Positions 17,851-32,629 of a stretch of DNA of 46,325 nt are shown in pieces. The notes under the pieces were generated by a model. It worked only from the letters and a program-made list of their open reading frames with translations. It was not told the DNA's origin and did no database searches. The stretch's first letter is position 1. The number at the start of each line of letters is the position of its first letter. Position numbers and translations under genes: made by a program. Origin of the DNA: a virus; the IMG/VR virus record IMGVR_UViG_3300009100_000007; one strand, 5' to 3'.

Positions 17851-19868
17851 AGAAACTACTATTACTGTTCGCAATATTGCTAATGCCCGCATGGGCGGAG
17901 GCGGCGACCTACTATGTCAAGCAGGCCAGCACCAACACCACGACTTGTGCCCTTGCGACCAGCTCCACCGGCAACAATCCGGTGAACACTTTCAAGCGCG
18001 GGCTTGAGTGCATGGCAGGCGGCGACACCTTGCAATTGATGGCTGATGGCCTCGGCGGGACGGCGACTTATGAAGAGGATTTATACAGCACGAACACAAA
18101 TCCGCCTAGCGGTACAGCAGGCGCACATACGACGATCCGTACTTTCGGCACCGACACTATTCGGTTTACGCATAACAGCTCTCTCAATTTCTACAACGGC
18201 AATTTCGAGTACGTGGATTTTATCGGCGGCTGCACCACCGGCATCAATCGAGTCTGTAAAATGATTTGGGACGGAGGGGCAAACGGCGCAAATTTCGCTA
18301 TCGCAGGAGGGAATATTGCGTTCGGTGGAACACCAAACACACCCGCACATCACTTAATCTTTGATGGTATTCGCGTTACTGGATATTGGAACAACAACGG
18401 CATCTCGGGCGAGGCTAGCAACGTTACAATCAGGAACTCTCGTATCGATAACAACGGTATTGACTATTCAAGCTCTGGTTTTCCTGGCTACGGGTTTTAT
18501 ATCGCGGCGGCGTCAGGCTTCGTGCTTGAATTTTCTGAGATAGATAACAACGGGAATTGGGGAGTGCATCATTTCTCGTCTGGTCTAGATTATACCTGTT
18601 GTACAGGCGCTGTATTACGATTTAACATTTTTCGTAACAATGGCGTTACTAAGCCAGCGGCACAATCAAGCGGCGACGTGCTCATGGGCATGTCTAACAA
18701 CGCCAAGATTTATGGAAACTTAGTCTACGGCAGCGGCAGCGAGTATGGAATCCGCATTGATTATACTTCGCGGGATGCGCTTGTCTATAACAACACCGTT
18801 CACGGCAGTACCTACGCCGCTTATGGCCAAGGTGATGCTGCGGGCACTCCTCCACAAAACAACACGTTCATAAACAACATAGCGCACCCTACTGGCGTAG
18901 GGACTGCGTTTAGTCTAGGCACGTCAACTGGAAGTGTTTTTTCTAATAACCTTTGCAGTAGTTCAACAACCGGTTGTGACCCCTTATTGAGTGAATCGCC
19001 ATCGACGACATTCAACGACGTGGCGAGTAACAACTTCACCCTCAAGGCCGGTTCCAAGGCGATCAACGGCGGTACTGATTTGCCCTCTCCTTACAACAAG
19101 TCGATCGACGGCACCACACGCAACCCAGGATTCTTTGACGTAGGCGCCTACGAAACGACGATGATGGCCCCGTCATGCCCCGCCGCGTCGCCCGCGCTAG
19201 TAGCGAGCTACAGTTTTGAAGGGGTAGGGACCGACGGCACAGGCAACGGGCACACGGCAACGCTAGGGACAGGTTGGAGTTATACAACAGGCAAATTCGC
19301 GCAGGGCGCAGTCACGGACGGCACCGCGGGTATCACCGTAGCCGACGCTAACGACCTAGACTTTTGCGGCGGCTTTACTCTGATGGCTTGGGTCAATCTC
19401 CCCGACACGCTTAACGACTATGCGCTAATCGTAAAGAACCCCAACAGCAAATATTTTCTCTTCGCTTCCATATCGAACTACTGTGGCGCAGGTCGAATGA
19501 TGGGCGGTTATTCGCAAGACCCTACCTTCGTTGCTGCTTGCTATTCCAGTGCGCCGATCACAACCGGAATCTTTCAACACTTAGCTGTCACCTATGACTC
19601 GACGTTTCCAACCTCGAGCGTGAAGCTCTATATAAACGGCTCACAGATTGCCAGCGCGGACGGGACCGCGCTACTCGACGCAACCACCGGCACCCTGCAA
19701 TTTTGTGAATCAGGATTCGGCGAGATATGCCCCAGCGGCACGATCCTTGATGACGTGAAGATATTTAACTACGCACTAACCTCGCCGCAGATAATCACGG
19801 CAATGGGCGGCGCAGCGCGGACAGTCAAAGTTGCCACAGGGCAGACCGTGAAAGTAGGTCAGCAATGA
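17847..19868 (+). CDS. Signal-peptide-bearing right-handed beta-helix protein with C-terminal LamG/concanavalin-like domain (673 aa); putative tailspike/depolymerase
   Basis: MKKLLLLFAILLMPAWAEA-A. Repeated IRNSRIDNNGI / SEIDNNGNWG / FRNNG / YNNTVHG / INNIAH PbH1-like turns. The C-terminus FTLMAWVNL...HLAVTYD...VKLYINGSQ...LDDVKIFNYALT is Laminin_G_3-like. Confidence 0.7.
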   Translation: MKKLLLLFAILLMPAWAEAATYYVKQASTNTTTCALATSSTGNNPVNTFKRGLECMAGGDTLQLMADGLGGTATYEEDLYSTNTNPPSGTAGAHTTIRTFGTDTIRFTHNSSLNFYNGNFEYVDFIGGCTTGINRVCKMIWDGGANGANFAIAGGNIAFGGTPNTPAHHLIFDGIRVTGYWNNNGISGEASNVTIRNSRIDNNGIDYSSSGFPGYGFYIAAASGFVLEFSEIDNNGNWGVHHFSSGLDYTCCTGAVLRFNIFRNNGVTKPAAQSSGDVLMGMSNNAKIYGNLVYGSGSEYGIRIDYTSRDALVYNNTVHGSTYAAYGQGDAAGTPPQNNTFINNIAHPTGVGTAFSLGTSTGSVFSNNLCSSSTTGCDPLLSESPSTTFNDVASNNFTLKAGSKAINGGTDLPSPYNKSIDGTTRNPGFFDVGAYETTMMAPSCPAASPALVASYSFEGVGTDGTGNGHTATLGTGWSYTTGKFAQGAVTDGTAGITVADANDLDFCGGFTLMAWVNLPDTLNDYALIVKNPNSKYFLFASISNYCGAGRMMGGYSQDPTFVAACYSSAPITTGIFQHLAVTYDSTFPTSSVKLYINGSQIASADGTALLDATTGTLQFCESGFGEICPSGTILDDVKIFNYALTSPQIITAMGGAARTVKVATGQTVKVGQQ

Positions 19869-20179
19869 TTACAATTACGATCCTGTTATTTGCCGCTATT
19901 CTTCTGTCAGGTTGCAGCACAACTTGGTTCTCGTGCCAAACAGTAGCGACGTACAACAAGGATGGGGAATGGTCGTACAAGTCGTGCAAGAACCAGGAGA
20001 ATTTCAAGGCTTATGTGGGCACGGATAAGAATGGGCGCCAATTTATTGAAGTCGAAACAACCGCCACGACTGCCGAATCAGCTATCATTGCCGCGAGTAA
20101 AGGCATGGCGGTTGCGTTCGATTCTCTCAATAGACTGATTCCGATCCTCGAAAAAGCGGCGCTGACCGGCGGAAGCTAA
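19865..20179 (+). CDS. Lipoprotein (104 aa), possible spanin-like or lysis-associated
   Basis: MITITILLFAAILLSGC has a lipobox (LSGC). The ORF overlaps the upstream gene by ATGA and immediately precedes the lysozyme gene. Confidence 0.65.
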   Translation: MITITILLFAAILLSGCSTTWFSCQTVATYNKDGEWSYKSCKNQENFKAYVGTDKNGRQFIEVETTATTAESAIIAASKGMAVAFDSLNRLIPILEKAALTGGS

Positions 20180-20721
20180 TGACCCCGCTCGACGGCGCCG
20201 TTAGATATTACGATGCCGTTACCGCCGCCCTCAAGGGCTACCCGGCAGCTATAGATCCAGCCTTAATCATCGCCATAATCCTACAGGAATCAGCCGGGAA
20301 CCCTTGGGCCTATAACCCCGAGCCGCGCTACCGCTGGTTTTGGAACGTCCGAAACGATTCCCCCTTCAGAAAGATAAACGATATCGAGATTGCCTCCAAA
20401 ATACCCCCTAATGACTTCCCTTGCCTCATTGGCGACCCCGATCAGGAATGGTGGGGCCAACAAGCCAGTTGGGGTTTAATGCAGGTAATGGGCGCGGCGG
20501 CGAGGGAGCAGCACTTTCGCGGCCCGTACCTTACCGAGCTTTGCCACCCCTATCTAAATATCGAGTACGGTATCAAGCACTGGTGGAATTTTGCCTCCCA
20601 ATTCGGGCGACGGAGTTCGGAAGCATCCTTGTCGCGCTGGAACACCGGCAACGATAGGGACGGACGCAGTTACGCTAAATCGGTGCTCGACAAACTCCCC
20701 GCCGTCCAAGCCGCAGTCTAA
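20179..20721 (+). CDS. Lytic transglycosylase (SLT-domain) endolysin or virion lysozyme (180 aa)
   Basis: AIILQESAGNPWAYNPE contains the catalytic-Glu motif of SLT/goose-type lysozymes. WGLMQVMG and YN.G-like motifs lie downstream. No signal peptide. Confidence 0.85.
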   Translation: MTPLDGAVRYYDAVTAALKGYPAAIDPALIIAIILQESAGNPWAYNPEPRYRWFWNVRNDSPFRKINDIEIASKIPPNDFPCLIGDPDQEWWGQQASWGLMQVMGAAAREQHFRGPYLTELCHPYLNIEYGIKHWWNFASQFGRRSSEASLSRWNTGNDRDGRSYAKSVLDKLPAVQAAV

Positions 20722-20764
20722 ATTCCCCCGCCGAAAATTATTTTTAAAAAAAATAAAAAAGTAC

Positions 20765-20793
20765 TTGACATCAACACGTACACGCACTATAAC
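20765..20793 (+). promoter_or_regulatory. Sigma70-type early promoter: TTGACA - 17 nt - TATAAC, with an upstream A/T tract
   Basis: -35 at 20765..20770 and -10 at 20788..20793, read directly. Preceded by ttatttttaaaaaaaataaaaaag. Sits at the late-to-early operon boundary. Confidence 0.75.
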
Positions 20794-21048
20794 GTGTCCA
20801 TGAGAGCAAATCACATAGGGGGAAACGAGCCAGCTATGAGAAAGCAATTTCAATTTAACATAAGCGACGAAGATGCTTGGCGAGCGGTCAGAATAGCAAG
20901 GCGAGCAGAGGCAATGACCAAGGGAATGAAAACATTCAAGGAGCAATGGAAAGAGGAGCGAAAGAAGGCCAAGGAGAAAAAGAAGCATGAAGAAAAAAAT
21001 CTACAAGTCAACGATCACCTTCCGCGTAGACCCAAGCCTCAAGCGTGA
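20794..21048 (+). CDS. First early ORF, possibly RHH-like, Lys-rich C-terminus (start uncertain: 20794 GTG, 20800 ATG or 20836 ATG)
   Basis: Immediately downstream of the promoter. RKQFQFNISDEDAWRAVRIARRAEAM resembles an RHH strand-helix. Its 3' end overlaps the next ORF by 62 nt in another frame. Confidence 0.4.
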   Translation: MSMRANHIGGNEPAMRKQFQFNISDEDAWRAVRIARRAEAMTKGMKTFKEQWKEERKKAKEKKKHEEKNLQVNDHLPRRPKPQA

Positions 21049-21154
21049 AATTGTGAAAGCGGCAAAGGCGGCAAGGCTAACCCGCTCGGCATACGTAGAA
21101 CAGTTAGTCAAAAGGGCATGGGTATATGGTCTTGCGACCCCGGCACCACGATAG
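20987..21154 (+). CDS. Ribbon-helix-helix (CopG/Arc-like) DNA-binding protein (55 aa; below the ORF-track size cutoff)
   Basis: MKKKIYKSTITFRVDPSLKREIVKAAKAARLTRSAYVEQLVKRA is a textbook RHH pattern (beta strand, then two helices). Translated by hand; TAG at 21152..21154. Confidence 0.65.
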   Translation: MKKKIYKSTITFRVDPSLKREIVKAAKAARLTRSAYVEQLVKRAWVYGLATPAPR

Positions 21155-21170
21155 AAGGGAGAAAAATAAT

Positions 21171-21404
21171 ATGGCAATGACGAAAACCGATATCAAGCAC
21201 GGAACAGTCACAATCAATGAAGCGGCTGACTCCCTGAACGACAACATCGAGAGTCTAAGCAAGTCCGTTGACTGGGCCTGCGCCGAGATTGAACGGCTAC
21301 GCGCGGCAAATGTCAAGCTCACAGTGGAGAATATGGAATTGACGCTCAAGAACGATAATCTGATTTATTACATTAAAGCTAACATGGCGGCGAGGGTAAA
21401 TTGA
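21171..21404 (+). CDS. Coiled-coil hypothetical protein (77 aa)
   Basis: GAAGGGAG RBS 9 nt before the ATG at 21171, in the frame of track ORF 21126..21404. Confidence 0.6.
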   Translation: MAMTKTDIKHGTVTINEAADSLNDNIESLSKSVDWACAEIERLRAANVKLTVENMELTLKNDNLIYYIKANMAARVN

Positions 21405-21505
21405 AACGCTTCATTTGCAAAATCCTCAGCATCCTATTTCCGGCACCTAAAAGTTTGACAGCGGAAAAGATCCTAATAGTCAACATGAAAGGGATCAACC
21501 GATGA
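21401..21505 (+). CDS. Possible small ORF (34 aa, TTG start)
   Basis: Bridges two genes with TTGA and ATGA overlaps at both ends. No other support. Confidence 0.3.
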   Translation: MKRFICKILSILFPAPKSLTAEKILIVNMKGINR

Positions 21506-21657
21506 AAAAGGAACTATTGGAACAGCTTAAGGTGATATTGCCGCTGACCGGAATAATCCTGCTCGCGCTGCTCCTATGGCGAGCGCCGGCATGGGGCTCG
21601 ACGTACTGCATCGATATCGGCGGCTCGACGTACTGCATCGATTTCCCAGACGAGTAA
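21502..21657 (+). CDS. Small membrane peptide with duplicated GSTYCID motif (51 aa)
   Basis: MKKELLEQLKVILPLTGIILLALLLWRAPAW-GSTYCIDIG-GSTYCIDFPDE. Contains the 21-nt direct repeat at 21595..21615 and 21622..21642. Confidence 0.5.
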   Translation: MKKELLEQLKVILPLTGIILLALLLWRAPAWGSTYCIDIGGSTYCIDFPDE

Positions 21658-21672
21658 GGAAGGAAAAGATAA

Positions 21673-21825
21673 ATGGGGCGTAAAAATCCGATGATAGTAA
21701 AAGCTCGTTGTCCACAATGCGATAAGGAAATTTCTCGACGTATGGGAAACTTAGGCGGGCGCGCCGTTAAGCGTTGGCTTGATGTAGCAATAGATAAGCA
21801 TTTAACGAAGGTGCATCGGAAGTAG
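21673..21825 (+). CDS. Small basic protein with CPQC motif (50 aa)
   Basis: AAGGAAGGAAAAG RBS before the ATG at 21673. Translated by hand; TAG at 21823..21825. Confidence 0.5.
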   Translation: MGRKNPMIVKARCPQCDKEISRRMGNLGGRAVKRWLDVAIDKHLTKVHRK

Positions 21826-21838
21826 GGGAGCAAATCCA

Positions 21839-22030
21839 ATGACTCGACCAATCAATGAACTCTTTGCCGCTCGCAGAACAAACCGCTTCCGTCATAATAA
21901 GAAGCTGCGCCAGCCTCTCAATCTGGATATGCTTATCGGCTGGTTTTGCTCTGCGGTGATAATTGTTGCCGCTTGGTCTTTGGCGTTCTGGCTTATCCGG
22001 TGGGCGTGGAATTATTGGGGTGGGCAATGA
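21839..22030 (+). CDS. Small membrane protein (63 aa)
   Basis: One hydrophobic helix (LIGWFCSAVIIVAAWSLAFWLI). Stop overlaps the next start (ATGA). Confidence 0.55.
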   Translation: MTRPINELFAARRTNRFRHNKKLRQPLNLDMLIGWFCSAVIIVAAWSLAFWLIRWAWNYWGGQ

Positions 22031-22242
22031 AAATAGAAATAATTCGCAAACTAGCATCACGCGCAGCAGAATTAGAAGAAATCAACGCCGCGCTCGTGGC
22101 CGCGCTGAAAAACTTAGCCGAGCAAGTTAGGTCACATCAACGCCCGCATAATTGCCCTGGCTTTGATTGCTCAACATGCACGCCAGTTGAGGCGCTATCT
22201 GATGCCGAAGCCGCGCTCGCACTAGCCAAGGGGGAGAAATGA
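22027..22242 (+). CDS. Hypothetical protein (71 aa)
   Basis: ATG at 22027 is coupled by ATGA on both sides. Same frame as track ORF 21946..22242. Confidence 0.55.
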   Translation: MKIEIIRKLASRAAELEEINAALVAALKNLAEQVRSHQRPHNCPGFDCSTCTPVEALSDAEAALALAKGEK

Positions 22243-22418
22243 AACCAAGCAACCACAGCCACTATTGCCCTAAGTGCAAGGGCCACAAATGGTGCGAGCA
22301 AATCACGCATTGCCGAAAACCCGACGTGAGCGTGTGCATGGACTGTCAGCCCGAAAGCCTATCAACCGACCGCGCCGAAGAACACTTCGCAGAAACAGGG
22401 AAATGGGGGATAAAATGA
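22239..22418 (+). CDS. Cys-rich zinc-finger-like protein (59 aa; below the track cutoff)
   Basis: MKPSNHSHYCPKCKGHKWCEQITHCRKPDVSVCMDCQ..., translated by hand. ATGA overlaps at both ends. Confidence 0.55.
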   Translation: MKPSNHSHYCPKCKGHKWCEQITHCRKPDVSVCMDCQPESLSTDRAEEHFAETGKWGIK

Positions 22419-22606
22419 ATAGATGGGGAAGTTATGACGACTACGCTAGAGAGATAGACGAACTCGCCGAGCGCCAAGCGCATGACGAAAGCCAATGCGA
22501 GGGTTTGCCGTTATGCTCCTATTGCCTGGATGAGTGGGAACAGTCGAACCAGGAAGAATGGGAACGGCAGCGCAACGCCGCGAACGAAAGGCAAGCAAAG
22601 AAATGA
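22415..22606 (+). CDS. Hypothetical acidic protein with CSYC motif (63 aa)
   Basis: ATG at 22415 is coupled to the upstream stop. The upstream part of track ORF 22274..22606 overlaps the better-supported 22239 ORF. Confidence 0.5.
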   Translation: MNRWGSYDDYAREIDELAERQAHDESQCEGLPLCSYCLDEWEQSNQEEWERQRNAANERQAKK

Positions 22607-22965
22607 GCAAGCCGGAACGCAGCGAGTTAGAGAAGCGCATCGTATTGGCCGAAGAGTACGGCCAGAAATATGCTTCGCTGCACGAGATTGCGTTGCAGCT
22701 AAGTGAAGATAAATCGAATTACTTAGCCGCGCTTATGAATGACTTGGAGAGTAACCACGGCAATACGATGTCAGAAAAAAAGCTAGAGCGGCTAGCCCGC
22801 GGCTCTAAACAGTACCGCGAATACATCAAGAATATGTGCATAGCCAAGGGTGAAGAGTTACGGGCCAAGGTTCGTTACGAAAATGCCCGCGACTTTTTCG
22901 AGGCTGGGCGCAGTCAGGAATCGACCGAGCGCGAAAAGATGAGAACGCTAAAATTTATTCCGTAA
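22603..22965 (+). CDS. Hypothetical helical protein (120 aa)
   Basis: ATG at 22603 overlaps the upstream TGA. Precedes the SSB-like and exonuclease genes. Confidence 0.6.
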   Translation: MSKPERSELEKRIVLAEEYGQKYASLHEIALQLSEDKSNYLAALMNDLESNHGNTMSEKKLERLARGSKQYREYIKNMCIAKGEELRAKVRYENARDFFEAGRSQESTEREKMRTLKFIP

Positions 22966-22979
22966 CCATAGGGGGAAAC

Positions 22980-23426
22980 ATGCAACTGCACATTGACTCG
23001 TTTAGCGACTTAAAAGTAACCGACAGGGGACCATCGGCGAAAATTAAATGTGGCAATAATTCTTATTTTGTTAATGAAGATCCGGCGAACCTTGTAGGGA
23101 AAAACGTCGAAGCAGAGGTCACAGAAAAAACCTCGGCTAAAGGAAATAAGTATTCCGTCGCCAAGATCACTAAAGTCTACGAAGCAACGGCAGCGAACAG
23201 CAACGGCAATAACAACGGAGCAATCACCTGGGATGCTTACCGCGCGATGGCGGAAGCGGCGCATGAGCTGGCGATGAAGTTAGAGCCAGACGATGTTAAT
23301 GATGAGGGTAAAATGACAAGTGACCGCTCCGCAGCCCGCGCAGCAATCCTAAACACCGTCATGATTGCCTACAGCAACGGGAAAATATTTGTTCCAGAAG
23401 AAGAGGACGATATTCCGCCGTTCTGA
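22980..23426 (+). CDS. SSB-like ssDNA-binding protein (148 aa)
   Basis: The C-terminal EEEDDIPPF is the acidic SSB-tail motif (DDDIPF type). The N-terminal half looks OB-fold-like. Adjacent to the exonuclease. Confidence 0.55.
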   Translation: MQLHIDSFSDLKVTDRGPSAKIKCGNNSYFVNEDPANLVGKNVEAEVTEKTSAKGNKYSVAKITKVYEATAANSNGNNNGAITWDAYRAMAEAAHELAMKLEPDDVNDEGKMTSDRSAARAAILNTVMIAYSNGKIFVPEEEDDIPPF

Positions 23427-23435
23427 GGTGCAACC

Positions 23436-24110
23436 ATGCAATACACCAATAAGCACAACCTACCCGAAGCATTGGTAAAGGCGCTGGTCTTTGACGACTA
23501 CGACTATGAAAAGGCCGGCGATATATCGGCGACCGGCCTGATTCAGCCGCCACGCATCGGCCAACTAACCAAGCGGCACAGTAAAGAGATCACCGAGGAC
23601 GTAAGCGATCTTATCTGGCGCATGGCCGGCAGTATCGGCCACAAGATCATCGAGCGCGGCGCACCGTTTGACACTTTCAGTGAGGAAAGGTTATCAACGC
23701 AGCTCCACGGTTGGACGATCACCGGGAAGGTTGATTTGATGCGGACGCACAACGGTTACGCTCATCAGCGCGACAAGTACGCAATCGAAGATTTTAAATT
23801 CCGCTCGGTATGGGCGGCTAAGGATGCAAAGCCCGAGGATGAGGCACAGTTAAACATCTATGCGACCCTTGCTAGGCATAACAGATTTGAGATCGAACTA
23901 CTCCGCATTATCAGTGTGCTCCGCGACTGGTCAAAGCTCAGGGCATCACGAGAGCCGGATTATCCGCAGGTGGGCGTGGTGGTGCGCGAGGTGCCTCTCT
24001 GGTCAGTCGAAGAGCAGGAAGCGTTTCTAGGGCAACGGGTGCGCGCACACCAGCAGGCCGAGAAGCTAGCCGACGATGATTTGCCGCTTTGCACCGAGGA
24101 AGAACGATGA
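23436..24110 (+). CDS. PD-(D/E)XK (Cas4/RecB-like) exonuclease, portion up to an in-frame TGA (224 aa)
   Basis: GKVDLM ... IEDFKF nuclease core. Ends LPLCTEEER-TGA at 24108..24110. Confidence 0.8.
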   Translation: MQYTNKHNLPEALVKALVFDDYDYEKAGDISATGLIQPPRIGQLTKRHSKEITEDVSDLIWRMAGSIGHKIIERGAPFDTFSEERLSTQLHGWTITGKVDLMRTHNGYAHQRDKYAIEDFKFRSVWAAKDAKPEDEAQLNIYATLARHNRFEIELLRIISVLRDWSKLRASREPDYPQVGVVVREVPLWSVEEQEAFLGQRVRAHQQAEKLADDDLPLCTEEER

Positions 24111-24380
24111 CACAAGCCGGATGTTTGGGCGGTAAAAAAGAAAGGCGGCAAGCGGGCTATTCCCGGCGGTTTATTCACCGATGAAAACGCTGCGGCTGCG
24201 TATGTGGCGAGAAATTCCGTAATCGAGGTAAAGCCGACGTATGAAATAGAATACCGGCCCGGCGAGGATGTTCGCTGTTTAAATTACTGCGCGGTTAAGG
24301 AGTTTTGCAGTTACGGAAAAACATTAACCAACGGAGGAGGAAATAGCATCGATGACACCGAAGGAAAGACAAATGTTTGA
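24111..24380 (+). other. In-frame continuation of the exonuclease beyond TGA 24108: 89 codons encoding the Cys-cluster C-terminus
   Basis: HKPDVWAVKKKGGKRAIPGG...EYRPGEDVRCLNYCAVKEFCSYGK. No start codon at its beginning. C-x3-C-x5-C complements the Cys upstream of the TGA. Next stop is TGA 24378..24380. Confidence 0.6.
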
Positions 24381-24534
24381 CGCATTGGTGCAAATAGCGC
24401 ACCGTGATTGCGCTAGTTTCTGCGGACTGGTTGCCAGAAAGATGATCGAGAAAATGCGCGACCACAAGATTGAGGAAATAATCACCACGAGCGAGGAAGT
24501 GATAGAGGTTTATAACAGGACGTTTAACAAGTGA
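24352..24534 (+). CDS. Hypothetical protein (60 aa)
   Basis: GGAGGAGG RBS upstream of the ATG at 24352. Confidence 0.6.
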   Translation: MTPKERQMFDALVQIAHRDCASFCGLVARKMIEKMRDHKIEEIITTSEEVIEVYNRTFNK

Positions 24535-24581
24535 CAGGGATAAGTACCAAGCAAAAATAAAGACGGTAAAAACGGGGGAAA

Positions 24582-24941
24582 ATGGAACAATCAAAGCCGG
24601 GTACTAAGTTAAGTCCGCAGTTAAAGGCCGTAGTGGAGCCGATCTATAGGAGAGATCCGAAGCGTTACCAGCGGTTATGCCAGTTTGTATGGACAATGCA
24701 GAAACAAGGTTGGCCGGATGAGGCGATAGCGCATTGCTTAAAGCTCGCAGACCCGCACCTGGATCACTTGACAAGCTGGTGGGCTTATCTGGTAAAGCGA
24801 ATGCCGCTCGGCAAGGCCCGAGCAAGCGAGCAGGAATCGGACAAGCACAAGTGTGAAGTCGGCCAGCTCGCGCAAGAGTTTGTGAACTTTTTAAAGGCGA
24901 GACATGACGCGCAACGAAACGACGCGAACGAAAAATCCTGA
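24582..24941 (+). CDS. Hypothetical protein (119 aa)
   Basis: ACGGGGGAA RBS before the ATG. Last ORF before the ORF-free island. Confidence 0.65.
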   Translation: MEQSKPGTKLSPQLKAVVEPIYRRDPKRYQRLCQFVWTMQKQGWPDEAIAHCLKLADPHLDHLTSWWAYLVKRMPLGKARASEQESDKHKCEVGQLAQEFVNFLKARHDAQRNDANEKS

Positions 24942-25159
24942 AAGCAGGTAGGATGGATGCGGACTCCTTAAAGTCTGGGGAAACCCACCTCACTCAGCGC
25001 CGAGGGCAAGGCGCGCGATCACGTTGCCGGTTGCGGCACCCGGTTTTAATTCAGAAGTAGCCGTAGCGCGATGAGCCGTCAACCCATAACTATGAAAGTG
25101 ACGGCACGACCGAGCATCGTTTACTTGAAACGTGGTCAGGATATAGAGTCCAAGAAACT

Positions 25160-25191
25160 AAAAAACCACCCATAGTTTGCTACAGGTGGTT
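25160..25191 (-). terminator. Rho-independent terminator (minus strand)
   Basis: Minus-strand RNA AACCACCUGUAG-CAAA-CUAUGGGUGGUU followed by UUUUUU. The 10-bp stem has two G.U pairs that become C.A mismatches on the plus strand, so it is strand-specific. Confidence 0.65.
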
Positions 25192-25234
25192 GATTAGCCG
25201 AGGACTGACCGAACAGCCATCGAATTGTACAGCG
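25160..25234 (-). ncRNA. Candidate ~75-nt small RNA (own promoter and intrinsic terminator)
   Basis: Bounded by the promoter at 25241..25270 and the terminator at 25160..25191 on the minus strand. The only internal ORF is 8 codons with no RBS. The 5' end is estimated from -10 spacing. Confidence 0.5.
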
Positions 25235-25240
25235 ACTCCC

Positions 25241-25270
25241 AGAGTAGCAAGGGTATCGGTCTACTGTCAA
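25241..25270 (-). promoter_or_regulatory. Minus-strand promoter: TTGACA - 18 nt - TGc-TACTCT (extended -10)
   Basis: The plus strand shows tgtcaa at 25265..25270 and agagta at 25241..25246, with gca immediately adjacent (TGC on the minus strand). Confidence 0.5.
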
Positions 25271-25355
25271 GAGGAAATTAAGAGGGGGTGATTAAATCCA
25301 ATGACACTTATTTGCCTGTTTGCGGCGTTAATATGTCATGCGACGCACAGTTTTA

Positions 25356-25381
25356 TTAGCCGGGGTAACGCATCCGGCTAA
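25356..25381. repeat. Perfect 8-bp inverted repeat with 10-nt loop (TTAGCCGG...CCGGCTAA)
   Basis: Read directly. No U-run follows on either strand, so it is not a canonical terminator. Lies 33 nt upstream of the VRR-NUC start. Confidence 0.6.
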
Positions 25382-25413
25382 AAACACGTTGACGTCGAAA
25401 TAGAGAGGGTAAA

Positions 25414-25740
25414 GTGAGTCTATACGATCAAATAAGTGAGTCAGCCTTCACCGCGCAGGTTATCCGCATGGCTCAGGTATTTAAATGGCGCGTGGCACAC
25501 TTCCGCCCCGGCATGACGAAGAGGGGGCGATGGGTGACGGCAATGAGTGGAAACATTGGGTTTTTTGATTTGGTGCTAATTGGGAAATCGAGAACAATAT
25601 TCGCTGAATTGAAAAGCGCGAAGGGAAAACTAACAGAGGATCAAAAGGAGTGGATTGCTCGGGCTAGGGAATGTCCCGGCGTGGAAACTTATGTTTGGTA
25701 TCCTAAAGATATTGAAATGATCGAGAGTATTTTAAGATGA
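25414..25740 (+). CDS. VRR-NUC domain nuclease (108 aa)
   Basis: GFFDLVLIG...IFAELKSAKGKLTEDQKEW fits the VRR-NUC PD...ExK...Q..W pattern. GAGAGGG RBS before the GTG start. Confidence 0.8.
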   Translation: MSLYDQISESAFTAQVIRMAQVFKWRVAHFRPGMTKRGRWVTAMSGNIGFFDLVLIGKSRTIFAELKSAKGKLTEDQKEWIARARECPGVETYVWYPKDIEMIESILR

Positions 25741-26162
25741 GTGGAATAGTTAGGCAATTAGCTATTACGCGGTTCGAGGCGTTTTGTATGCCTGAACCAA
25801 TGTCAGGTTGCATTATCTGGATGGGTGCAATTAGTAGCAATGGGTATGGGCATTTTTGGTTTAATCGTAAACCGATCGGCGCCCATGTTTGGGCATGGGT
25901 AGCGGCTAACGGGCCGTTGCCACAAGGCTTACAGATTGACCACTTGTGCAGGAATAGGCCATGCGTCAATGCGCGGCATTTAGAAGCAGTAACCGGCAGG
26001 GTCAACACGCTAAGGGGTAACACGATCACCGCCGCGAACAGTCGAAAAACGCATTGCCCAATTGGTCACGAGTTAAACGGAGTCAATTTGATTAGAGTTG
26101 CAGGCCGGCGTGTGTGTCGGGAATGTAAAAACTCAAAACGTAGGCGACCGAAAGGATTTTAA
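25737..26162 (+). CDS. HNH endonuclease (HNH_3-type, 141 aa)
   Basis: CIIWMGAISSNGYGHFW...IDHLCRNRPCVNARHLEAVT...N is the classic phage HNH pattern. ATGA overlap with the VRR-NUC gene. Confidence 0.8.
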   Translation: MSGIVRQLAITRFEAFCMPEPMSGCIIWMGAISSNGYGHFWFNRKPIGAHVWAWVAANGPLPQGLQIDHLCRNRPCVNARHLEAVTGRVNTLRGNTITAANSRKTHCPIGHELNGVNLIRVAGRRVCRECKNSKRRRPKGF

Positions 26163-26201
26163 GATAATGCCCCTGCGCGAAACTTTAAGAGAGAAAGGAT
26201 T

Positions 26202-26567
26202 ATGGCGCATGAAGTGTTCAAACAGATTCATGCCATGTCGATCGAGATCGCCTTAGGCGATTATGGCGGTATCCGTGACTGGAAACACCAGTGGATTAAC
26301 GAGACTTACCCCGATTCAAAGCCTAACCTTAGCCCTTACGATAGACTCCTTATTGCTGTACTGGTCAACGCGATAAACCTGGTCAGCAAGCCGCCAAGCC
26401 GCCATCTACAGGATAATAGGACGCAACGCGCCTGTAACAGTGCAGCTCGCTGGATAAAGAGCGACCGCGACGACTACGTGTTGGACTTTGTTTCGGTATG
26501 TGAACACTTCGGCTGGGTGCCGGCGGATATAAGAAAGAGAATTCGCCAAAAGGTAAGCGGCAAGTAA
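26202..26567 (+). CDS. Hypothetical protein (121 aa)
   Basis: AGAGAGAAAGGA RBS. The C-terminal DFVSVCEHFGWVPADIRKRI resembles a recurrent phage motif of unknown function. Confidence 0.6.
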   Translation: MAHEVFKQIHAMSIEIALGDYGGIRDWKHQWINETYPDSKPNLSPYDRLLIAVLVNAINLVSKPPSRHLQDNRTQRACNSAARWIKSDRDDYVLDFVSVCEHFGWVPADIRKRIRQKVSGK

Positions 26568-26575
26568 AAGGCAAA

Positions 26576-26600
26576 GCCGAGCCCCGGTGAAGGACTCGGC
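26576..26600 (-). terminator. Hairpin between convergent genes; terminator for the minus-strand cluster
   Basis: GCCGAG-13 nt-CUCGGC. On the minus strand it is followed by UUUGCCUUUU. On the plus strand the T-run is displaced. Confidence 0.5.
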
Positions 26601-26613
26601 CCACCATTTTCCA

Positions 26614-26808
26614 TCATTCTCCCCTCTTTGGGTATCTATGAAAATATTCGAAAGGGCATCTACCGGAAGGAGTAGGCGTTATGCCGGTAATTATGGCATC
26701 GTCCCACGACAGGCCGCAATGTCCGCAGGTATAACGTGCCTTTGCCGGTTCATCGTCCCTTAATGGTTGCACCTGAAAGTTTTTTGGTATGCGTACCACG
26801 TTTTTCAT
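26614..26808 (-). CDS. Small Zn-ribbon protein (64 aa)
   Basis: GGAGAA RBS 8 nt before the ATG at 26808 (track start 26814 is TTG). Contains CGHCG ... C cysteines. Confidence 0.6.
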   Translation of the reverse strand: MKNVVRIPKNFQVQPLRDDEPAKARYTCGHCGLSWDDAIITGITPTPSGRCPFEYFHRYPKRGE

Positions 26809-26838
26809 TATCAATTCTCCATTCTTTAATTTAGTGAC

Positions 26839-26918
26839 CGGCTTAACCGACCGGGCCTTGAAGGGCGCAACCCCTACGGCTTCACTAGGCTTGGAGAAAG
26901 CCCGGCAAAGTTAAGCCG
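26839..26918 (-). promoter_or_regulatory. Interrupted 15-bp inverted repeat enclosing ~43 nt in the leader of 26614..26808
   Basis: 26839..26847 pairs with 26910..26918, and 26851..26856 pairs with 26900..26905. Overlapped by the stop of a 9-codon mini-ORF (26911..26940) that has a strong RBS. Confidence 0.4.
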
Positions 26919-27072
26919 CTTTTACGCTGAATAGTTCCATGTTCTTTCTCCTTCCCGGTTTTGCGGCCCGGCTATAATAATTTGTCTATTTGCTGTTTGG
27001 CGAATTCTATTGCTAGTTTTTTAGCTTCGGCATTGCTGCGAGTTTGCGGCCAGGGTTTTGGTTGGTTATTGT

Positions 27073-27363
27073 TTATCGTTTTGCTAGGTCACACTTTTGG
27101 CAAATCTCCATCATTTGCTTGCGCGGTCCGTAGCGATCGTCCTCGACTAGCTTGAAATCGCAAACATGCTTCGGATGCGTATGCACAGACCACCCGCCGG
27201 GATTGGCGTGATTGCGATCGAGATGATTTTCGGCAATCTTCATTGTTTTGAACGGCCCGAAGGTGTCAAAGGCTGGATTCTCGCCGTAGGGCCATCGCTG
27301 GATTTTGTAAAACCATTCATCAAGATTTTTCTCGTAAAAAACGCAATCTGCTCCTGTACTCAT
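27073..27363 (-). CDS. Hypothetical protein (96 aa)
   Basis: GGAAGGAGAAAC RBS. C-terminal CQKC motif. Confidence 0.65.
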   Translation of the reverse strand: MSTGADCVFYEKNLDEWFYKIQRWPYGENPAFDTFGPFKTMKIAENHLDRNHANPGGWSVHTHPKHVCDFKLVEDDRYGPRKQMMEICQKCDLAKR

Positions 27364-27424
27364 TTTGTTTCTCCTTCCCGGTATGCCGCCGGGTTTGGTT
27401 GCGCCCGGTTAATAAGCGGAGCTG

Positions 27425-27619
27425 TTATTTGATAAACCAAGAATTGTCGCGCCTAGCCGGTCTAATGGCAGGCTTTACCTTGCCGGCCTGCTCCAATGCC
27501 GTCATGGTGGTTTTACCGGCCTTAATGAGGCGTCTAACTGCGCTGTAGTCGGTATTGCAGAGACCGCGTGACCAAGGTTTGTTCTTGCAGCCTGGTACCA
27601 GGCATTTTTCGGTATTCAT
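27425..27619 (-). CDS. Small Cys-containing DNA-binding-like protein (64 aa)
   Basis: CLVPGCKNKPWSRGLCNTDYSAVRRLIKAGKTTMTALEQAGK is a recurrent phage pattern. The ATG overlaps the upstream stop (ATGA). Confidence 0.6.
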   Translation of the reverse strand: MNTEKCLVPGCKNKPWSRGLCNTDYSAVRRLIKAGKTTMTALEQAGKVKPAIRPARRDNSWFIK

Positions 27620-28080
27620 TTCTCTCCCCTTGCTTGCGCGATTGCTGCTTTTAGACTGGTTTTGATCTCGTCAAACTTGGCCTTGCGCTGTTTATCCATG
27701 CCGGCGCCTGTTGGCGGTTGATTCCAGAAATCATTGATTGCTTCCAACGCTTCGAGCATGGTGGGAGCAGCGGCGATCAGGTGCGCGTTGGCTGCGCTGG
27801 CATCGTCGCGCACTTTTTGAGCATCCTTTACTATTTCCAGCCATTCGGGATGGCCGACTAGATAAGCATCATCAGCCATTGCTAGAATGTGGCGAGCGAG
27901 TTTACTTTCCATTTTGGGCCTCATGCTATCATCAATTGACCATGTTTCTTTACAGTGCGAGCAACCGTAGGTATTGGCGCAATATGCAACCGGCAACAAA
28001 TCGCGGTCACATACTGGACACTGCTTAAGGGCTAGCCTTGCGTTATGCAGGGCTGCTTTGTCCATTGCTTCATAATCCAT
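27616..28080 (-). CDS. Zn-ribbon plus Ead/Ea22-like C-terminal domain protein (154 aa)
   Basis: CPVC...CSHC, then AAPTMLEALEAI, a motif common in Ead/Ea22-like early phage proteins. AGGGGGGAAAA RBS. Confidence 0.6.
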   Translation of the reverse strand: MDYEAMDKAALHNARLALKQCPVCDRDLLPVAYCANTYGCSHCKETWSIDDSMRPKMESKLARHILAMADDAYLVGHPEWLEIVKDAQKVRDDASAANAHLIAAAPTMLEALEAINDFWNQPPTGAGMDKQRKAKFDEIKTSLKAAIAQARGEK

Positions 28081-28120
28081 TTTTCCCCCCTATTTTGCCG
28101 AGTTGATAATCCGTCCAAGA

Positions 28121-28140
28121 TTGCACCCCGCAGGGTGCAA
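28121..28140 (-). terminator. Strong intercistronic hairpin (8-bp stem, tetraloop), possible attenuator or processing site
   Basis: TTGCACCC-cgca-GGGTGCAA, 13 nt downstream (minus sense) of the 28153 stop. It is followed only by UCUUGG, so termination is uncertain. Confidence 0.35.
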
Positions 28141-28152
28141 GGTTTGGGGGGA

Positions 28153-28626
28153 CTATTCGAGTTTCAAACCCGCCTGGATTGCATTCCAGTAAGCAACCGA
28201 TTTTTTGCCGGCATATTTACGCGGCATGAATTCGCGCTGATTGTAGGAGTTAGGGCTGTCAACTTTGCCTAATGAGTAGCGTACTGCGCCAAGCTTGCGG
28301 AGCCGTTTTATTATGACTTTCATAGCGCCATCATCGTGAACGTCCTTGCAAAGCTTGGCTGCTAGCTCGAAGGCTTCCGGCTTGCCGGCGCTTAATCCTT
28401 CGACGCGAATAGCGTAGGCTTGGCGCAATCCTTTAGTATGATACTTATCGTCGGCGCCGTTGTTGGATTGAGCGCGAATAGTAAACATGTCGTCTGCAAA
28501 CTGGAAATAGTATTTTGACTGTTCGTTATAGGCCGAGGGCTTGCGTATAAGGATTTGATATTCGGTGATATTGCAGGACTTGTTGTCAGTTTGCCAGTAA
28601 TTGTAAATATATTTAGGCTTTTTCAT
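28153..28626 (-). CDS. Hypothetical protein (157 aa)
   Basis: AAGGAG RBS 7 nt before the ATG. AT-richer codon usage than the late genes. Confidence 0.65.
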   Translation of the reverse strand: MKKPKYIYNYWQTDNKSCNITEYQILIRKPSAYNEQSKYYFQFADDMFTIRAQSNNGADDKYHTKGLRQAYAIRVEGLSAGKPEAFELAAKLCKDVHDDGAMKVIIKRLRKLGAVRYSLGKVDSPNSYNQREFMPRKYAGKKSVAYWNAIQAGLKLE

Positions 28627-28671
28627 CTTTCATCTCCTTACCAGCTTGCGAGCTGGATTTGGTTGAGAACG

Positions 28672-28836
28672 TTAATATCTATTTCTATATTCATTCCAAA
28701 ATTTGTCGTTTTCTTCTTTCATTGCTTTGCTGCGCTGCGCTGATTCATTATTGAAGTCAGCGCGGCATTGAGGGCAGAAGTTGCATTCGTTCGCTATTGG
28801 GTTTTCTTGATTGCATCGGTCGCATTTAGCTTCCAT
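28672..28836 (-). CDS. Small double-CxxC zinc-ribbon protein (54 aa)
   Basis: AGGAGG RBS 10 nt before the ATG at 28836 (MEAKCDRC...CPQC). The track start at 28869 would place the RBS inside the ORF. Confidence 0.55.
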   Translation of the reverse strand: MEAKCDRCNQENPIANECNFCPQCRADFNNESAQRSKAMKEENDKFWNEYRNRY

Positions 28837-29271
28837 GTTTTCAAATCCTCCTGGTATCAAACTACCCAATTAACTAAGCAACTAATAGGCCAACAAGCAC
28901 AAGTGATCTAAATCAAGTAGTTAACTCATTGACGTCTTCCAAAGTGTATGAAAAAAGTGTATGATATCCCGCTTACTTGTGCGGCAATTACGCACTTATT
29001 GCGCAGCAATGATAATTGTGAAATATATAAACCACGATATGTCTGAGCTTTTTTTCTTTGTTTATATGGCTGTATGTGGTAATCCTTCTTGCGCGTAGTA
29101 GGGAAAATGTACGGACTATATTCAAGTTGACCCCGATCAGACCATACATGCGATATTTAGCACCGGGTTTGATTTCGCTAATTTCCTGCGTCGTGGCGCG
29201 CTGATAGGTAAGGATGGTAAGGACGATATCAATGAGGAACAATTCAGAGAGGCCGACTGCGAGGGAAGGGC

Positions 29272-29397
29272 ATGAAGAGAGTTATTGCCGCTCTATTGTT
29301 TGCTAGCTGCGCCATAACACCTAAACCAATGGGTGCAACGCATTGTGAGTTGTTAGATATTCAGAATAACGGCCTAATGGTTCTCGCGTGTTATTAA
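29272..29397 (+). CDS. Small lipoprotein-like ORF (41 aa; below the track cutoff)
   Basis: GAGGGAAGGG RBS. MKRVIAALLFASC has a signal and lipobox-like Cys. Translated by hand; TAA at 29395..29397. Confidence 0.45.
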   Translation: MKRVIAALLFASCAITPKPMGATHCELLDIQNNGLMVLACY

Positions 29398-29443
29398 TAG
29401 AATCGGGCAAATAAGCCCGTAGAATAAATCTCACTACAATCCC

Positions 29444-29890
29444 ATGCCAAAAGGAGTGCAAGGATTCCAGAAAGGAAATAGCTTCGGTGGTTACAGAGAA
29501 AAGGCCGGTAGGCTCACTAAAGAAGAAGAACAAGAGCGTTTAACACTTATTCAATGGCTTGAACGCGAGAAACAAAGAAGAGCGAAGCAGATAGCGAAGC
29601 GTTATTATGACATGGCCCATAATGACCCGCCTACAATGCGCCATGTCATTGATGGCGAGAGGCTAAATAATGGCCTACAGCAATCCAGCACCACCACTTA
29701 CCAATTTATTCAATTCACAAATAATCAAAATACCCTACAACTACCTGCCGAGGGGATATCAGCTCCCATTCTGGTTAGCGATGGGAGAGGGGAAGAAGAG
29801 AGCAGTAAAGTGTTGGCATCGTCGGTCGGGGAAGGACAAGACGGACTTAAATTTCATAGTTTCGCGCATGTTCCCCGAAAACCAAGGTAG
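29444..29890 (+). CDS. Terminase small subunit-like protein (up to 148 aa; last 221 nt overlap terL)
   Basis: MPKGVQGFQKGNSFGGYREKAGRLTKEE resembles the N-terminal motif of small terminases. Directly precedes terL. No SD. The true C-terminus is uncertain. Confidence 0.5.
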   Translation: MPKGVQGFQKGNSFGGYREKAGRLTKEEEQERLTLIQWLEREKQRRAKQIAKRYYDMAHNDPPTMRHVIDGERLNNGLQQSSTTTYQFIQFTNNQNTLQLPAEGISAPILVSDGRGEEESSKVLASSVGEGQDGLKFHSFAHVPRKPR

Positions 29891-31094
29891 GATCGGCACC
29901 TATTTCCACCTATTCCCCACCTATACCCAAGGCAAAAAAATAATGTGGGACGGTATAGACAAGGCCGGGTTTAGGGTAATGGACCATTTCCCCGGGTTTA
30001 GTGCCCGTCAGCACCCTGCCGGTATTGTCGCAAGGAAGAACGAGACAGAGTTACGCGTTGAGCTGGTAAATGGCTCCGCGTACCAGGTCATAGGGACGGA
30101 CAAGATTGACAGTATTATAGGCACAAACCCTGTAGGCTGCGTATTCAGTGAGTTTAGCCTACAAGACCCTAGGGCATGGGATATGTTATCGCCTATCTTA
30201 TTGGAAAATGACGGGTTTGCACTGTTTAACTTCACACCTCGTGGCCACAACCATGCCGAAGGTCTGTACAGGATGGCGCAGAAAGACCCGGCCTGGTATT
30301 GCTCAAGGTTTACAATCGACGATACCAAGGACGATGAAGGTAAGCCGATCATCACCAAAGATCAGATAGAGTCAGAGCGCAGGCGACTAGTTGAGCAAGG
30401 TAAGAGCGAGAGCGATGCGGAGACATTCCTACAGCAAGAATATTACTGCTCATTCGAGGGCTACTTAGAAGGTAGCTACTACAGTGAGCAGCTCCGCATA
30501 GCCCGGTCACAAGGGCGCATAACGCGCATCCCTTGGCGTACCAACGAACCTGTCTATACCTTTTGGGATATAGGTGTAGGCGATAGCACCGCCATCTGGT
30601 TCGGCCAACGCTATAAGCACTTGATACTAATGATCGACTACTACGAGGATCACGGCAAGCAACTATCATTCTACGCCAAAAAGCTCAAAGAACTACCATA
30701 CGTTTACGGTGGTCACTACTGGCCGCATGATGGCAAGAATAGGGACTTCAGCGGCCAAGAAGGCGAGGACAGGCGCGACACTGGGCAGCGCTTAGGTGTT
30801 AGGCCTATCTACATCGTACCAAGGGGTGATGTAGACGATGGCATAGACTCAGCACGCCGGTTATTTAGTCAGTGCTGGTTCGATGCCAAGAACTGCGCCA
30901 AGGGTTTAGACGCCTTAGCTAGTTATCACAAGGAGTGGGACGAGGACCGCAAGGAGTTCAGGCAGCGGCCATTCCACGACTGGTCGAGTCATGGCGCGGA
31001 CGCGTTTAGGACTATGGCTAAAAGTAGATGGGACTGGCCGGTTCAGGATGATAATCAACCGCATCGATTACCGCCTTCGGCAATGAGCGCATAG
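29670..31094 (+). CDS. terL: Terminase large subunit (474 aa)
   Basis: PRGYQLPFW...HRRSGKDK (Walker A-like) at the N-terminus. HDWSSHGADAFRTM is the nuclease-domain motif near the C-terminus. TAA two codons upstream of the ATG fixes the N-terminal limit. Confidence 0.9.
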   Translation: MAYSNPAPPLTNLFNSQIIKIPYNYLPRGYQLPFWLAMGEGKKRAVKCWHRRSGKDKTDLNFIVSRMFPENQGRIGTYFHLFPTYTQGKKIMWDGIDKAGFRVMDHFPGFSARQHPAGIVARKNETELRVELVNGSAYQVIGTDKIDSIIGTNPVGCVFSEFSLQDPRAWDMLSPILLENDGFALFNFTPRGHNHAEGLYRMAQKDPAWYCSRFTIDDTKDDEGKPIITKDQIESERRRLVEQGKSESDAETFLQQEYYCSFEGYLEGSYYSEQLRIARSQGRITRIPWRTNEPVYTFWDIGVGDSTAIWFGQRYKHLILMIDYYEDHGKQLSFYAKKLKELPYVYGGHYWPHDGKNRDFSGQEGEDRRDTGQRLGVRPIYIVPRGDVDDGIDSARRLFSQCWFDAKNCAKGLDALASYHKEWDEDRKEFRQRPFHDWSSHGADAFRTMAKSRWDWPVQDDNQPHRLPPSAMSA

Positions 31095-31098
31095 AGTT

Positions 31099-31347
31099 AT
31101 GCTACATAACGCTTGCTATGTTTTATCACGTTATTATAACGTAACAGGCATGGAAGCGCCTAAGTGTAGAATTTGTGGTGCGAAGCATTATGCCATGCAG
31201 CCGCATGTGTTCAAGGACGCACCCAATCTGGCGGCACCTGCGGCACCAGCAACAGGTAAGACTAAGCATTGTCATACTTGCAGGTGTTTTCCCATGACAG
31301 CAGCCGAGCGGCAGAAGGCATACCGCGAGCGCAAGAGAACCGCATGA
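31099..31347 (+). CDS. Small zinc-finger protein (82 aa, or 65 aa from the ATG at 31150)
   Basis: CRIC...H...CHTC motif and a basic C-terminus. Stop overlaps the next start. Confidence 0.55.
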   Translation: MLHNACYVLSRYYNVTGMEAPKCRICGAKHYAMQPHVFKDAPNLAAPAAPATGKTKHCHTCRCFPMTAAERQKAYRERKRTA

Positions 31348-32075
31348 ACATTATTTCCTTAGGTGCAGGCGTCCAATCTTCAACAATGGCGCTGATGGCG
31401 GCGCACGGCGAGATAACGCCGATGCCGGATGCTGCGATCTTTGCCGATACGCAGGCCGAGCCAGAGGCAGTTTATGAGTGGCTTGATTGGCTGAAAAAGC
31501 AATTGCCGTTTCCGGTGATTCGCGTCAGTAAAGGCAATCTGCAGAGAGAAACGCTACGCCAAAGGACAAGTAAAAAGGGCCGCAATTATTACAAGCTCTA
31601 TGTTCCTAGTTACGGCGAGAACGGCCCGATGCCGCGTAAGTGTACTACAGATTTCAAGTTAGTCCCGCTTTATGCGCATCTGCGCCAATGGCGTCCCGTT
31701 ACTATCTGGATTGGAATCAGTCTCGATGAAGCATATCGAATGAAAGAACCGTTCCGTAAATGGGTAATAAACCGTTATCCGCTCGTTGATTTAAGAATCC
31801 GTCGAAGCGACTGTTTGTTGTGGATGGAACGCGCCGGTTATCCAAAGCCGCCACGGTCGGCCTGTATATTTTGCCCATATCATAGCGATCAAGAATGGCG
31901 CGATTTGCCTTCTAGCGAATTTGCGCAGGCAGTTGAATTTGAGCGACAGCTACCAGCGGGAGAATTTTTGCATCGTAAAAGAGTCCCGCTCGATCAAGTT
32001 GATTTCTCCACCGACGAGGATCGCGGCCAACTGAATATGTTTAACAACGAGTGCGAAGGAATGTGCGGGGTATGA
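31344..32075 (+). CDS. PAPS-reductase-like (adenine-nucleotide alpha-hydrolase, PP-loop) protein (243 aa)
   Basis: MNIISLGAGVQSSTMAL is the PP-loop variant seen in phage PAPS-reductase/DndC-like proteins. C-terminal CIFCPYHSDQEW motif. ATG at 31344 overlaps the upstream TGA. Confidence 0.7.
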   Translation: MNIISLGAGVQSSTMALMAAHGEITPMPDAAIFADTQAEPEAVYEWLDWLKKQLPFPVIRVSKGNLQRETLRQRTSKKGRNYYKLYVPSYGENGPMPRKCTTDFKLVPLYAHLRQWRPVTIWIGISLDEAYRMKEPFRKWVINRYPLVDLRIRRSDCLLWMERAGYPKPPRSACIFCPYHSDQEWRDLPSSEFAQAVEFERQLPAGEFLHRKRVPLDQVDFSTDEDRGQLNMFNNECEGMCGV

Positions 32076-32629
32076 AGCTCAACATCGGCTGTGGCCGCAC
32101 TCCGCTTAAAGGCTGGATAAACGTTGATTGTATGGCCGCAATCAACGGTGATTCCATTGTGGATATCATCGCCAACCTTGACGCCAATGTGGTGAAACTG
32201 CCACTAGGCGATGATGTCTGTGATGAATTCCTACTGTCGCATGTGATCGAGCATATCAATAAGCCCTTGCCGCTGATGCAGGAACTACACAGAGTCGCCA
32301 AGCCCGGCGCCGTAGCAGTTATAAAGACGCCTTACGGCAGCAGTGACGATGCATGGGAAGATCCCACACACGTTAGACCCTACTTCGTTAATAGCTTCGG
32401 GTATTTCTCCCAACCGTTTTACTGGCGTGCCGACTATGGGTATCGGGGCGACTGGCGGGTTAAGAACATAAAGCTCTTTGTAGTTTCACCGCAAGTGACG
32501 ATAGGCACTGTCAGAGTAATGCGCAACACAGTTAAGGAAATGGTAGTCGAGCTTGAGGCAGTCAAGCCGATCCGTCCGCCTGTAGAGGAAATGGCGGAAC
32601 CAGTGCCGCTAGAGTTGGTGAGTCCATGA
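32072..32629 (+). CDS. Class I SAM-dependent methyltransferase (185 aa)
   Basis: MKLNIGCG (motif I) ... FLLSHVIEHI ... LHRVAKPGAVAVI follows the Methyltransf_11-like pattern. ATGA overlap with the upstream gene. Confidence 0.7.
   Translation: MKLNIGCGRTPLKGWINVDCMAAINGDSIVDIIANLDANVVKLPLGDDVCDEFLLSHVIEHINKPLPLMQELHRVAKPGAVAVIKTPYGSSDDAWEDPTHVRPYFVNSFGYFSQPFYWRADYGYRGDWRVKNIKLFVVSPQVTIGTVRVMRNTVKEMVVELEAVKPIRPPVEEMAEPVPLELVSP

Follow-up and report, generated by a model that had tools for sequence, protein, structure and literature searches.

An in-frame TGA in a Cas4-like phage exonuclease gene is a single-base difference private to one assembly

In the viral contig IMGVR_UViG_3300009100_000007, the gene of a Cas4-like exonuclease is interrupted by an in-frame TGA followed by a C, which raises the question of whether this codon is a site of readthrough or recoding, a recent nonsense mutation, or an error in the contig. 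The whole contig, 46,325 nucleotides in length, was analyzed and is referred to hereafter as the window, and all positions are given in window coordinates. Reading of the sequence identifies, on the + strand, an ORF of 224 codons that starts at ATG 23436 and ends with ...LPLCTEEER-TGA, with the TGA at 24108..24110 and a C as the next base, 24111. Past this TGA, the same frame comprises 89 sense codons (HKPDVWAVKKKGG...CLNYCAVKEFCSYGK...) and stays open until a second TGA at 24378..24380 (+). ORF calling reports a single candidate start (ATG, GTG or TTG) within these 89 codons, GTG 24204. The arrangement is thus the one described in the earlier note, which had assigned both parts to a single 314-residue protein and had offered three outcomes: a regulated ratio of long and short isoforms, local recoding, or a recent nonsense mutation. 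The same note had counted only one other TGA followed by a C among roughly 25 TGA-terminated ORFs of this genome, a count that is about right. The stop at 24108..24110 is the only internal TGA-C among plausible genes, but the full-length exonuclease gene likewise ends, at 24378..24380 (+), with a TGA followed by a C, its native stop.

The ancestral full-length gene covers positions 23436..24380 (+; 314 codons and the native stop) and is intact in all sister contigs, the near-identical contigs of other assemblies, where its product is the protein P0121. Within it, the truncated ORF (23436..24110, +) encodes the PD-(D/E)XK core, with residues D100, D119-x-K121, Q138, and Y142, and the first cysteine of a putative cluster, C219 (24090..24092). 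The TGA at 24108..24110 (+) takes the place of the TGG codon of a conserved tryptophan, Trp225. The 89 codons that are cut off (24111..24377, +) correspond to the C-terminal domain and contain the three other invariant cysteines, C281 (24276..24278), C285 (24288..24290), and C291 (24306..24308). The next gene (24352..24534, +) encodes a 60-residue protein and overlaps the 3' end of the exonuclease gene by 29 nucleotides. Sister contigs display the same layout, the two counterparts being located at 10001-10945 and 10917-11099 in contig L001.

Both halves of the interrupted frame match the same profile, phrog_2139 ("exonuclease"), and the split is therefore not a matter of chance. The PHROGs profile search aligns the N-terminal part with positions 120-253 and the C-terminal part with positions 284-325 out of 330 in total. 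The conceptual fusion of the two parts returns an E-value of 1e-47 (best stretch 120-325), as compared with 8.4e-37 for the N-terminal part alone and 0.0026 for the C-terminal part alone. Similarly, the fused product reaches 22.8 bits with the Pfam family PDDEXK_1 (PF12705), above the gathering threshold of 22, while the 224-residue part alone scores 20.4 bits and stays below it. The fused product, in which the D...(D/E)-x-K residues are present, is thus a member of the PD-(D/E)XK superfamily, and the earlier assignment of both parts to one protein of 314 residues is borne out. A tblastn search of 50,697 phage records returns a homologue in 466 of them, and in 432 a single-piece match extends over 80% or more of the fused query. 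In a collection of 5.8 billion proteins, 296 homologues are found at E<=1e-10. The closest ones share 59-74% identity with the fused query over ~95% of its length and comprise 288-317 residues.

An alignment of 100 sequences gives the residue expected at the position of the stop. The TGA column is occupied by a tryptophan in 99 of the 100 aligned homologues and by a leucine in the remaining one, and never by a cysteine, in keeping with the statement in the earlier note that a tryptophan follows the EER motif. C219, C281, C285, and C291 are invariant (100/100), and the proposed arrangement of one cysteine before the stop and a C-x3-C-x5-C motif after it is therefore a genuine feature of these proteins. 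Among the catalytic residues, D100 and K121 are invariant, D119 is found in 99 of the 100 sequences, and Q138 and Y142 are nearly invariant. The single-protein reading would have been undermined by homologues ending at the TGA and by a tail unlike the C-termini of nucleases. All homologues of the alignment end at reference position 280 or beyond and none near column 225, and the segment past the stop is the one that matches phrog_2139 positions 284-325. Residues 226-300, encoded past the stop, share a mean identity of 50% with the homologues. A single uninterrupted ORF of ~280-325 residues is present in every one of the 99 homologues and in every sister contig, and it is broken in the window copy by the TGA at codon 225. 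A nuclease made of two pieces, the second one restarting at GTG 24204, was also considered and rejected, since split homologues are not found and the second piece would be devoid of residues 226-256, which are confidently folded in the structural model described below.

The AlphaFold2 model of P0121, obtained with the 100-sequence alignment, has a mean pLDDT of 93 and a pTM of 0.88, and the residues located beyond the stop (226-300) are predicted with block-mean pLDDT values of 84-97. A Foldseek search of the PDB with this model returns as top match the Cas4 protein SSO0001 (4ic1; E-value 6e-8, TM-score 0.62 normalised to the target length). The following matches are, in this order, 9kqh (a DinG helicase entry), ACE1, an Argonaute-associated protein of the Cas4 family, human EXO5, Cas4 within Cas4-Cas1-Cas2 complexes, and AddAB. 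RecE, MGME1, AdnAB, and Dna2 come last. PD-(D/E)XK nucleases of the Cas4/AddB/EXO5 type make up most of these matches, and the protein can therefore rightly be called "Cas4-like" with regard to its structure. Sequence models and genomic context, by contrast, do not support membership of the Cas4 family. Indeed, Pfam analysis of the protein reports no Cas4 family match and only the generic PDDEXK_1 family, at threshold. The PADLOC Cas4 model returns only a hit with an E-value of 0.022 (13 bits, residues 84-159, which cover the core alone), and NCBIfam returns no match at E<=1. Profile searches of the PDB do not report any meaningful sequence relative. Moreover, the exonuclease gene has no CRISPR context and no cas genes are seen beside it, the neighbours being phage genes that encode a VRR-NUC-like endonuclease, an HNH endonuclease, the terminase, the portal, and the capsid.

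The four cysteines follow the spacing C219-x61-C281-x3-C285-x5-C291, in which C219 is located downstream of the PD-(D/E)XK core. The fold of the phage protein matches that of Cas4 and of the related Fe-S nucleases ACE1, EXO5, the AddB nuclease domain, and Dna2, and the protein associates the core with four conserved cysteines, three of which form a C-terminal C-x3-C-x5-C motif. In canonical Cas4 and AddB proteins, the first cysteine is N-terminal to the core and the C-terminal motif is C-x2-C-x5-C. The phage protein differs from them in that its first cysteine comes after the core and in the C-x3-C spacing that replaces C-x2-C. Taken together, the model and the conserved residues suggest that the phage product is a 314-residue exonuclease of the structural class of Cas4, AddB, and EXO5, made up of a PD-(D/E)XK core and a four-cysteine module that presumably coordinates an iron-sulfur cluster. 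Its closest functional label is that of phrog_2139, which comprises the exonucleases of the Pelagibacter phage EXVC032P, the Leptospira phages LE3/LE4, and the Planktothrix phage Pag-Yong1, as well as those of the Salmonella phages FSL SP-058/076, the Klebsiella phage Pylas, and the Escherichia phage Pollock. The protein matches this profile over its full length and possesses the same D...D-x-K...Q...Y motifs and the same four cysteines. However, it shares only 26-39% identity with any catalogued phage, and the premature TGA is found in no other member.

The exonuclease gene sits in the DNA-metabolism block of the phage. Downstream of it, the ORF at 25414..25740 encodes a 108-residue VRR-NUC-like endonuclease, as suggested by a weak phrog_93 match (8e-9) and a PF08774 match below the cutoff. 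This protein also returns weak matches that resemble Holliday-junction resolvases. If it is a nuclease of the PD-(D/E)XK type, it would be the second one encoded here, 1 kb past the exonuclease gene. The ensuing ORF (25737..26162) encodes the HNH endonuclease, and the terminase large subunit is encoded farther downstream, at 29670..31094. Just past the terminase gene, positions 31269..32629 contain a gene that resembles phosphoadenosine-phosphosulfate reductases (phrog_424, E-value 4e-44), followed by a methyltransferase gene (PF08241). This pair may form a DNA- or nucleotide-modification module. Lastly, a separate Endonuclease_7 gene is located at 36622..37056.

The same phage is found in other assemblies, in which the site of the stop can be read directly. 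P0121, which corresponds to the conceptual product of the window with a tryptophan at residue 225, is the one other member of the 90% cluster of the 224-residue product, P0001, and is seen in JGI, Logan, and ENA data. It is encoded on at least seven contigs from at least five other samples, and these contigs share 99.9-100% identity with the window. Three exact-protein look-ups led to 16 sister loci, the identity of which with the window ranges from 99.87% to 100%. Together they leave no base of the window uncovered (median depth, 4). Base 24110, an A in the window, is a G in contigs L001-L005 and L017, and the stop is thus not conserved among these related genomes, which possess a TGG codon at the site. 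Over the 945 bp of the gene, this base is the sole difference between the window and L001, L003, L004, and L005, and the L002 gene contains one additional difference, at a synonymous site (23531). At the DNA level, blastn does not report any relative of the exonuclease gene among INPHARED phages.

Comparison with the 16 sister loci leaves five positions that are private to the window, namely the pairs 12218/12222 and 43002/43005, the members of which are 4 and 3 bp apart, respectively, and the singleton 24110. The second pair lies in an 86-residue ORF of the minus strand. The difference at 12222 changes a protein of 1251 residues, in which it gives Ala612, and was used as a haplotype tag. An exact look-up of the Ala612 protein returns one contig, ENA ERZ27257649:k141_5037037 (46,343 bp), which carries the private haplotype of the window (12218A, 12222G, 28126C). 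Over window positions 389..24144, this contig departs from the window only at 24110, where a G makes the codon TGG. Over positions 24206..34941, the only departure is at 26077, a G in this contig and an A in the window. The two sequences therefore display two differences in 34,492 compared bases, both of them G-to-A changes in the window, located 1,967 bp apart. The second change (26077, +) replaces Ser114 with Asn in the HNH endonuclease encoded by 25737..26162. The 224-residue product is recorded on the contig of the window only, while the Trp225 form is found in JGI, Logan, and ENA assemblies, and the same holds for the Asn114 variant of the HNH endonuclease and its Ser114 form. A search of related contigs for the same TGA, as proposed in the earlier note, thus gives a negative answer, all near-identical sister genomes and the ERZ27257649 contig having TGG. 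Since the contig that shares the window haplotype also reads TGG, the TGA is a private single-base difference of one assembly and not a trait of the phage lineage or of the haplotype.

A few other features emerged from these comparisons. The window contains an exact 123-bp terminal direct repeat (1..123 and 46203..46325), which identifies it as a circularly closed assembly with a unit of 46,202 bp. Sister contigs are circular permutations of the window, as illustrated by L012, which runs from 29803 across the end to 4443. In L011, a Logan contig of run SRR5582436, the sequence stops at window position 12217, one base before the 12218/12222 pair, and this end point hints at the presence of both haplotypes in the same run. 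In the regions 13943..14057 and 17130..17355, SNPs and a small indel are clustered in single sister contigs. L008 has six substitutions, located in the 3'-terminal part of the ORF of the 1251-residue protein, and L003 contains nine substitutions and a 2-bp gap in an ORF of 757/787 residues with a weak Glyco_hydro_39 match. Amid a nearly invariant genome, these clusters of variants suggest diversifying tail or receptor-binding regions.

The sister genomes bear directly on the idea of a programmed readthrough, according to which the leaky UGA-C would set the ratio of a short, 224-residue nuclease to a long, 314-residue one. Insertion of a tryptophan would restore the conserved residue, and the downstream frame is wholly intact, both of which speak for such a mechanism. 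An intact frame is also accounted for by a very recent change, given that the gene contains no other difference. The TGA is not conserved: every sister genome at least 99.9% identical to the window has TGG, and 99 of the 100 homologues have a tryptophan. The C at +4 (24111), which gives the stop its leaky context, opens the CAC codon of the conserved His226 and was therefore never selected as part of a stop context. No stimulatory element is found on the 3' side, the 100 nucleotides from the TGA folding no better than shuffled sequences (z = +0.27). A search of Rfam with 23900..24500 returns neither a SECIS element nor any other family at E<=1. A stand-alone short form would be without precedent, since no homologue ends near column 225. 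A programmed readthrough is thus very unlikely, and the regulated isoform ratio put forward in the earlier note is not supported, the near-identical sisters all having TGG and the 224-residue product being recorded on one contig.

A reassigned codon, UGA being read as tryptophan in a code 4-like manner or as selenocysteine by means of a suppressor tRNA or a SECIS element, deserves even less credence and can be set aside with near certainty. UGA is reassigned to tryptophan in some phages and bacteria, and the TGA of the window falls exactly on a conserved tryptophan column. However, in a greedy set of 72 ORFs of the window, the stops are TAA in 34 cases, TGA in 24, and TAG in 14. With 24 of the 72 ORFs ending with it, TGA serves in this genome as a stop like any other, and the native stop of the exonuclease gene itself establishes TGA-C as a genuine terminator. 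No tRNA gene, and hence no suppressor tRNA, is found in the 46-kb window. The gene calls of the sister contigs match the ORFs of the window everywhere except in the exonuclease, and therefore no other gene of the window is split relative to them. A code 4-like reassignment was rejected in view of the stop-codon usage and the absence of tRNA genes, and selenocysteine in view of the lack of a SECIS element and the presence of a tryptophan, not a cysteine, at this column in homologues. Local recoding, the second outcome envisaged in the earlier note, is thus contradicted by the TGG codons of the sisters and of the same-haplotype assembly as well as by these searches. Of the three outcomes, only the recent nonsense mutation remains tenable. 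So does the error in assembly or sequencing that the same note had named as a possible refutation. Counting these two together, the TGA can be considered unprogrammed with high confidence.

Whether the A at 24110 is real is a closer matter. If it resulted from an error of sequencing, read correction, or assembly, the phage would simply have TGG and an intact gene, an explanation that is plausible but that we judge the less probable of the two. It fits a variant found as a singleton, on one contig among at least nine assemblies of the phage and in none of the other samples, and it fits the G present at this position in the ERZ27257649 contig of the same haplotype. In addition, this contig may be a re-assembly of the reads of the window. 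The unit sizes agree (46,343 - 141 = 46,325 - 123 = 46,202 bp) if the ERZ27257649 contig has the usual k-mer overlap of 141 bp. Should both contigs derive from the same reads, two assemblers would disagree at 24110 and the A allele would at best not be dominant. On the other hand, the 46-kb contig agrees with the ERZ27257649 contig at every other compared base, and two separate errors would hardly be expected to be of one type and to fall within 2 kb of each other. The linkage of two G-to-A changes 1,967 bp apart makes a real sub-lineage likelier. The 123-bp terminal overlap suggests that the window was obtained by de Bruijn graph assembly. The k-mers of such contigs must occur, normally repeatedly, in the reads, which also speaks against an error. 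From the sequence comparisons, a very recent and unfixed TGG-to-TGA nonsense allele in the sampled phage population appears to be the best reading, and it is favored with moderate confidence.

If the nonsense allele is real, the third base of the Trp225 codon would have changed from G to A (TGG to TGA) in this contig only. Termination at codon 225 would then yield a 224-residue fragment that retains the catalytic motifs and C219 and lacks C281, C285, C291, and the C-terminal subdomain. With these three cysteines gone, cluster assembly should not be possible in the fragment, which is probably inactive or unstable, as the analogy with Fe-S nucleases sharing this fold suggests. UGA is the leakiest of the bacterial stops, and UGA-C was reportedly found by Poole et al. 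in 1995 to be the weakest termination signal of E. coli. In competition with RF2, near-cognate decoding of the UGA by Trp-tRNA(Trp) would produce exactly the wild-type protein, perhaps at a few per cent. The allele may therefore be hypomorphic rather than null. It would resemble in this respect ordinary opal alleles, in which TGG becomes TGA by a one-step transition and misreading by Trp-tRNA(Trp) restores the wild-type residue. Basal UGA readthrough by Trp-tRNA(Trp) amounts to ~2-4% in E. coli reporters (PMC10570021) and is modulated by the fourth base and by the RF2 variant of the host (PMC5373646). Full-length protein would thus be made from this allele only through generic and unselected leakiness of UGA, and not at an evolved recoding site. 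Such an allele could persist for a while by means of this leak, if the function is not essential, or through complementation by co-infecting wild-type genomes. A stronger proposal holds that the TGA allele is a real and naturally maintained hypomorph that provides a subpopulation of the phage with a few per cent of the normal exonuclease dose, the TGG/TGA polymorphism being kept by selection instead of being transient. In that proposal, the truncated nuclease core devoid of its cluster might have a separate role. It is highly improbable, and a very recent, unfixed nonsense allele stays the preferred reading.

An in-frame stop at a conserved tryptophan column, followed by an intact frame and placed in a "leaky" context, mimics recoding when a single contig is read alone, and comparison with near-identical assemblies reduces it to a private single-base change. 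The value of the finding lies in this negative result and in the caution that it calls for: the putative recoding feature is not real, and nothing out of the ordinary has happened to this member of a known family of phage exonucleases. The locus should be annotated as a Cas4-like PD-(D/E)XK exonuclease, 314 residues long in the lineage, the copy of this contig being flagged for a premature stop or a possible sequence error, and neither a pair of genes nor a readthrough gene should be annotated there. As for phrog_2139, it is a well-populated and little-studied family that combines the Cas4 fold with an atypically placed first cysteine and has no solved relative by sequence, and it may merit study independently of the stop codon.
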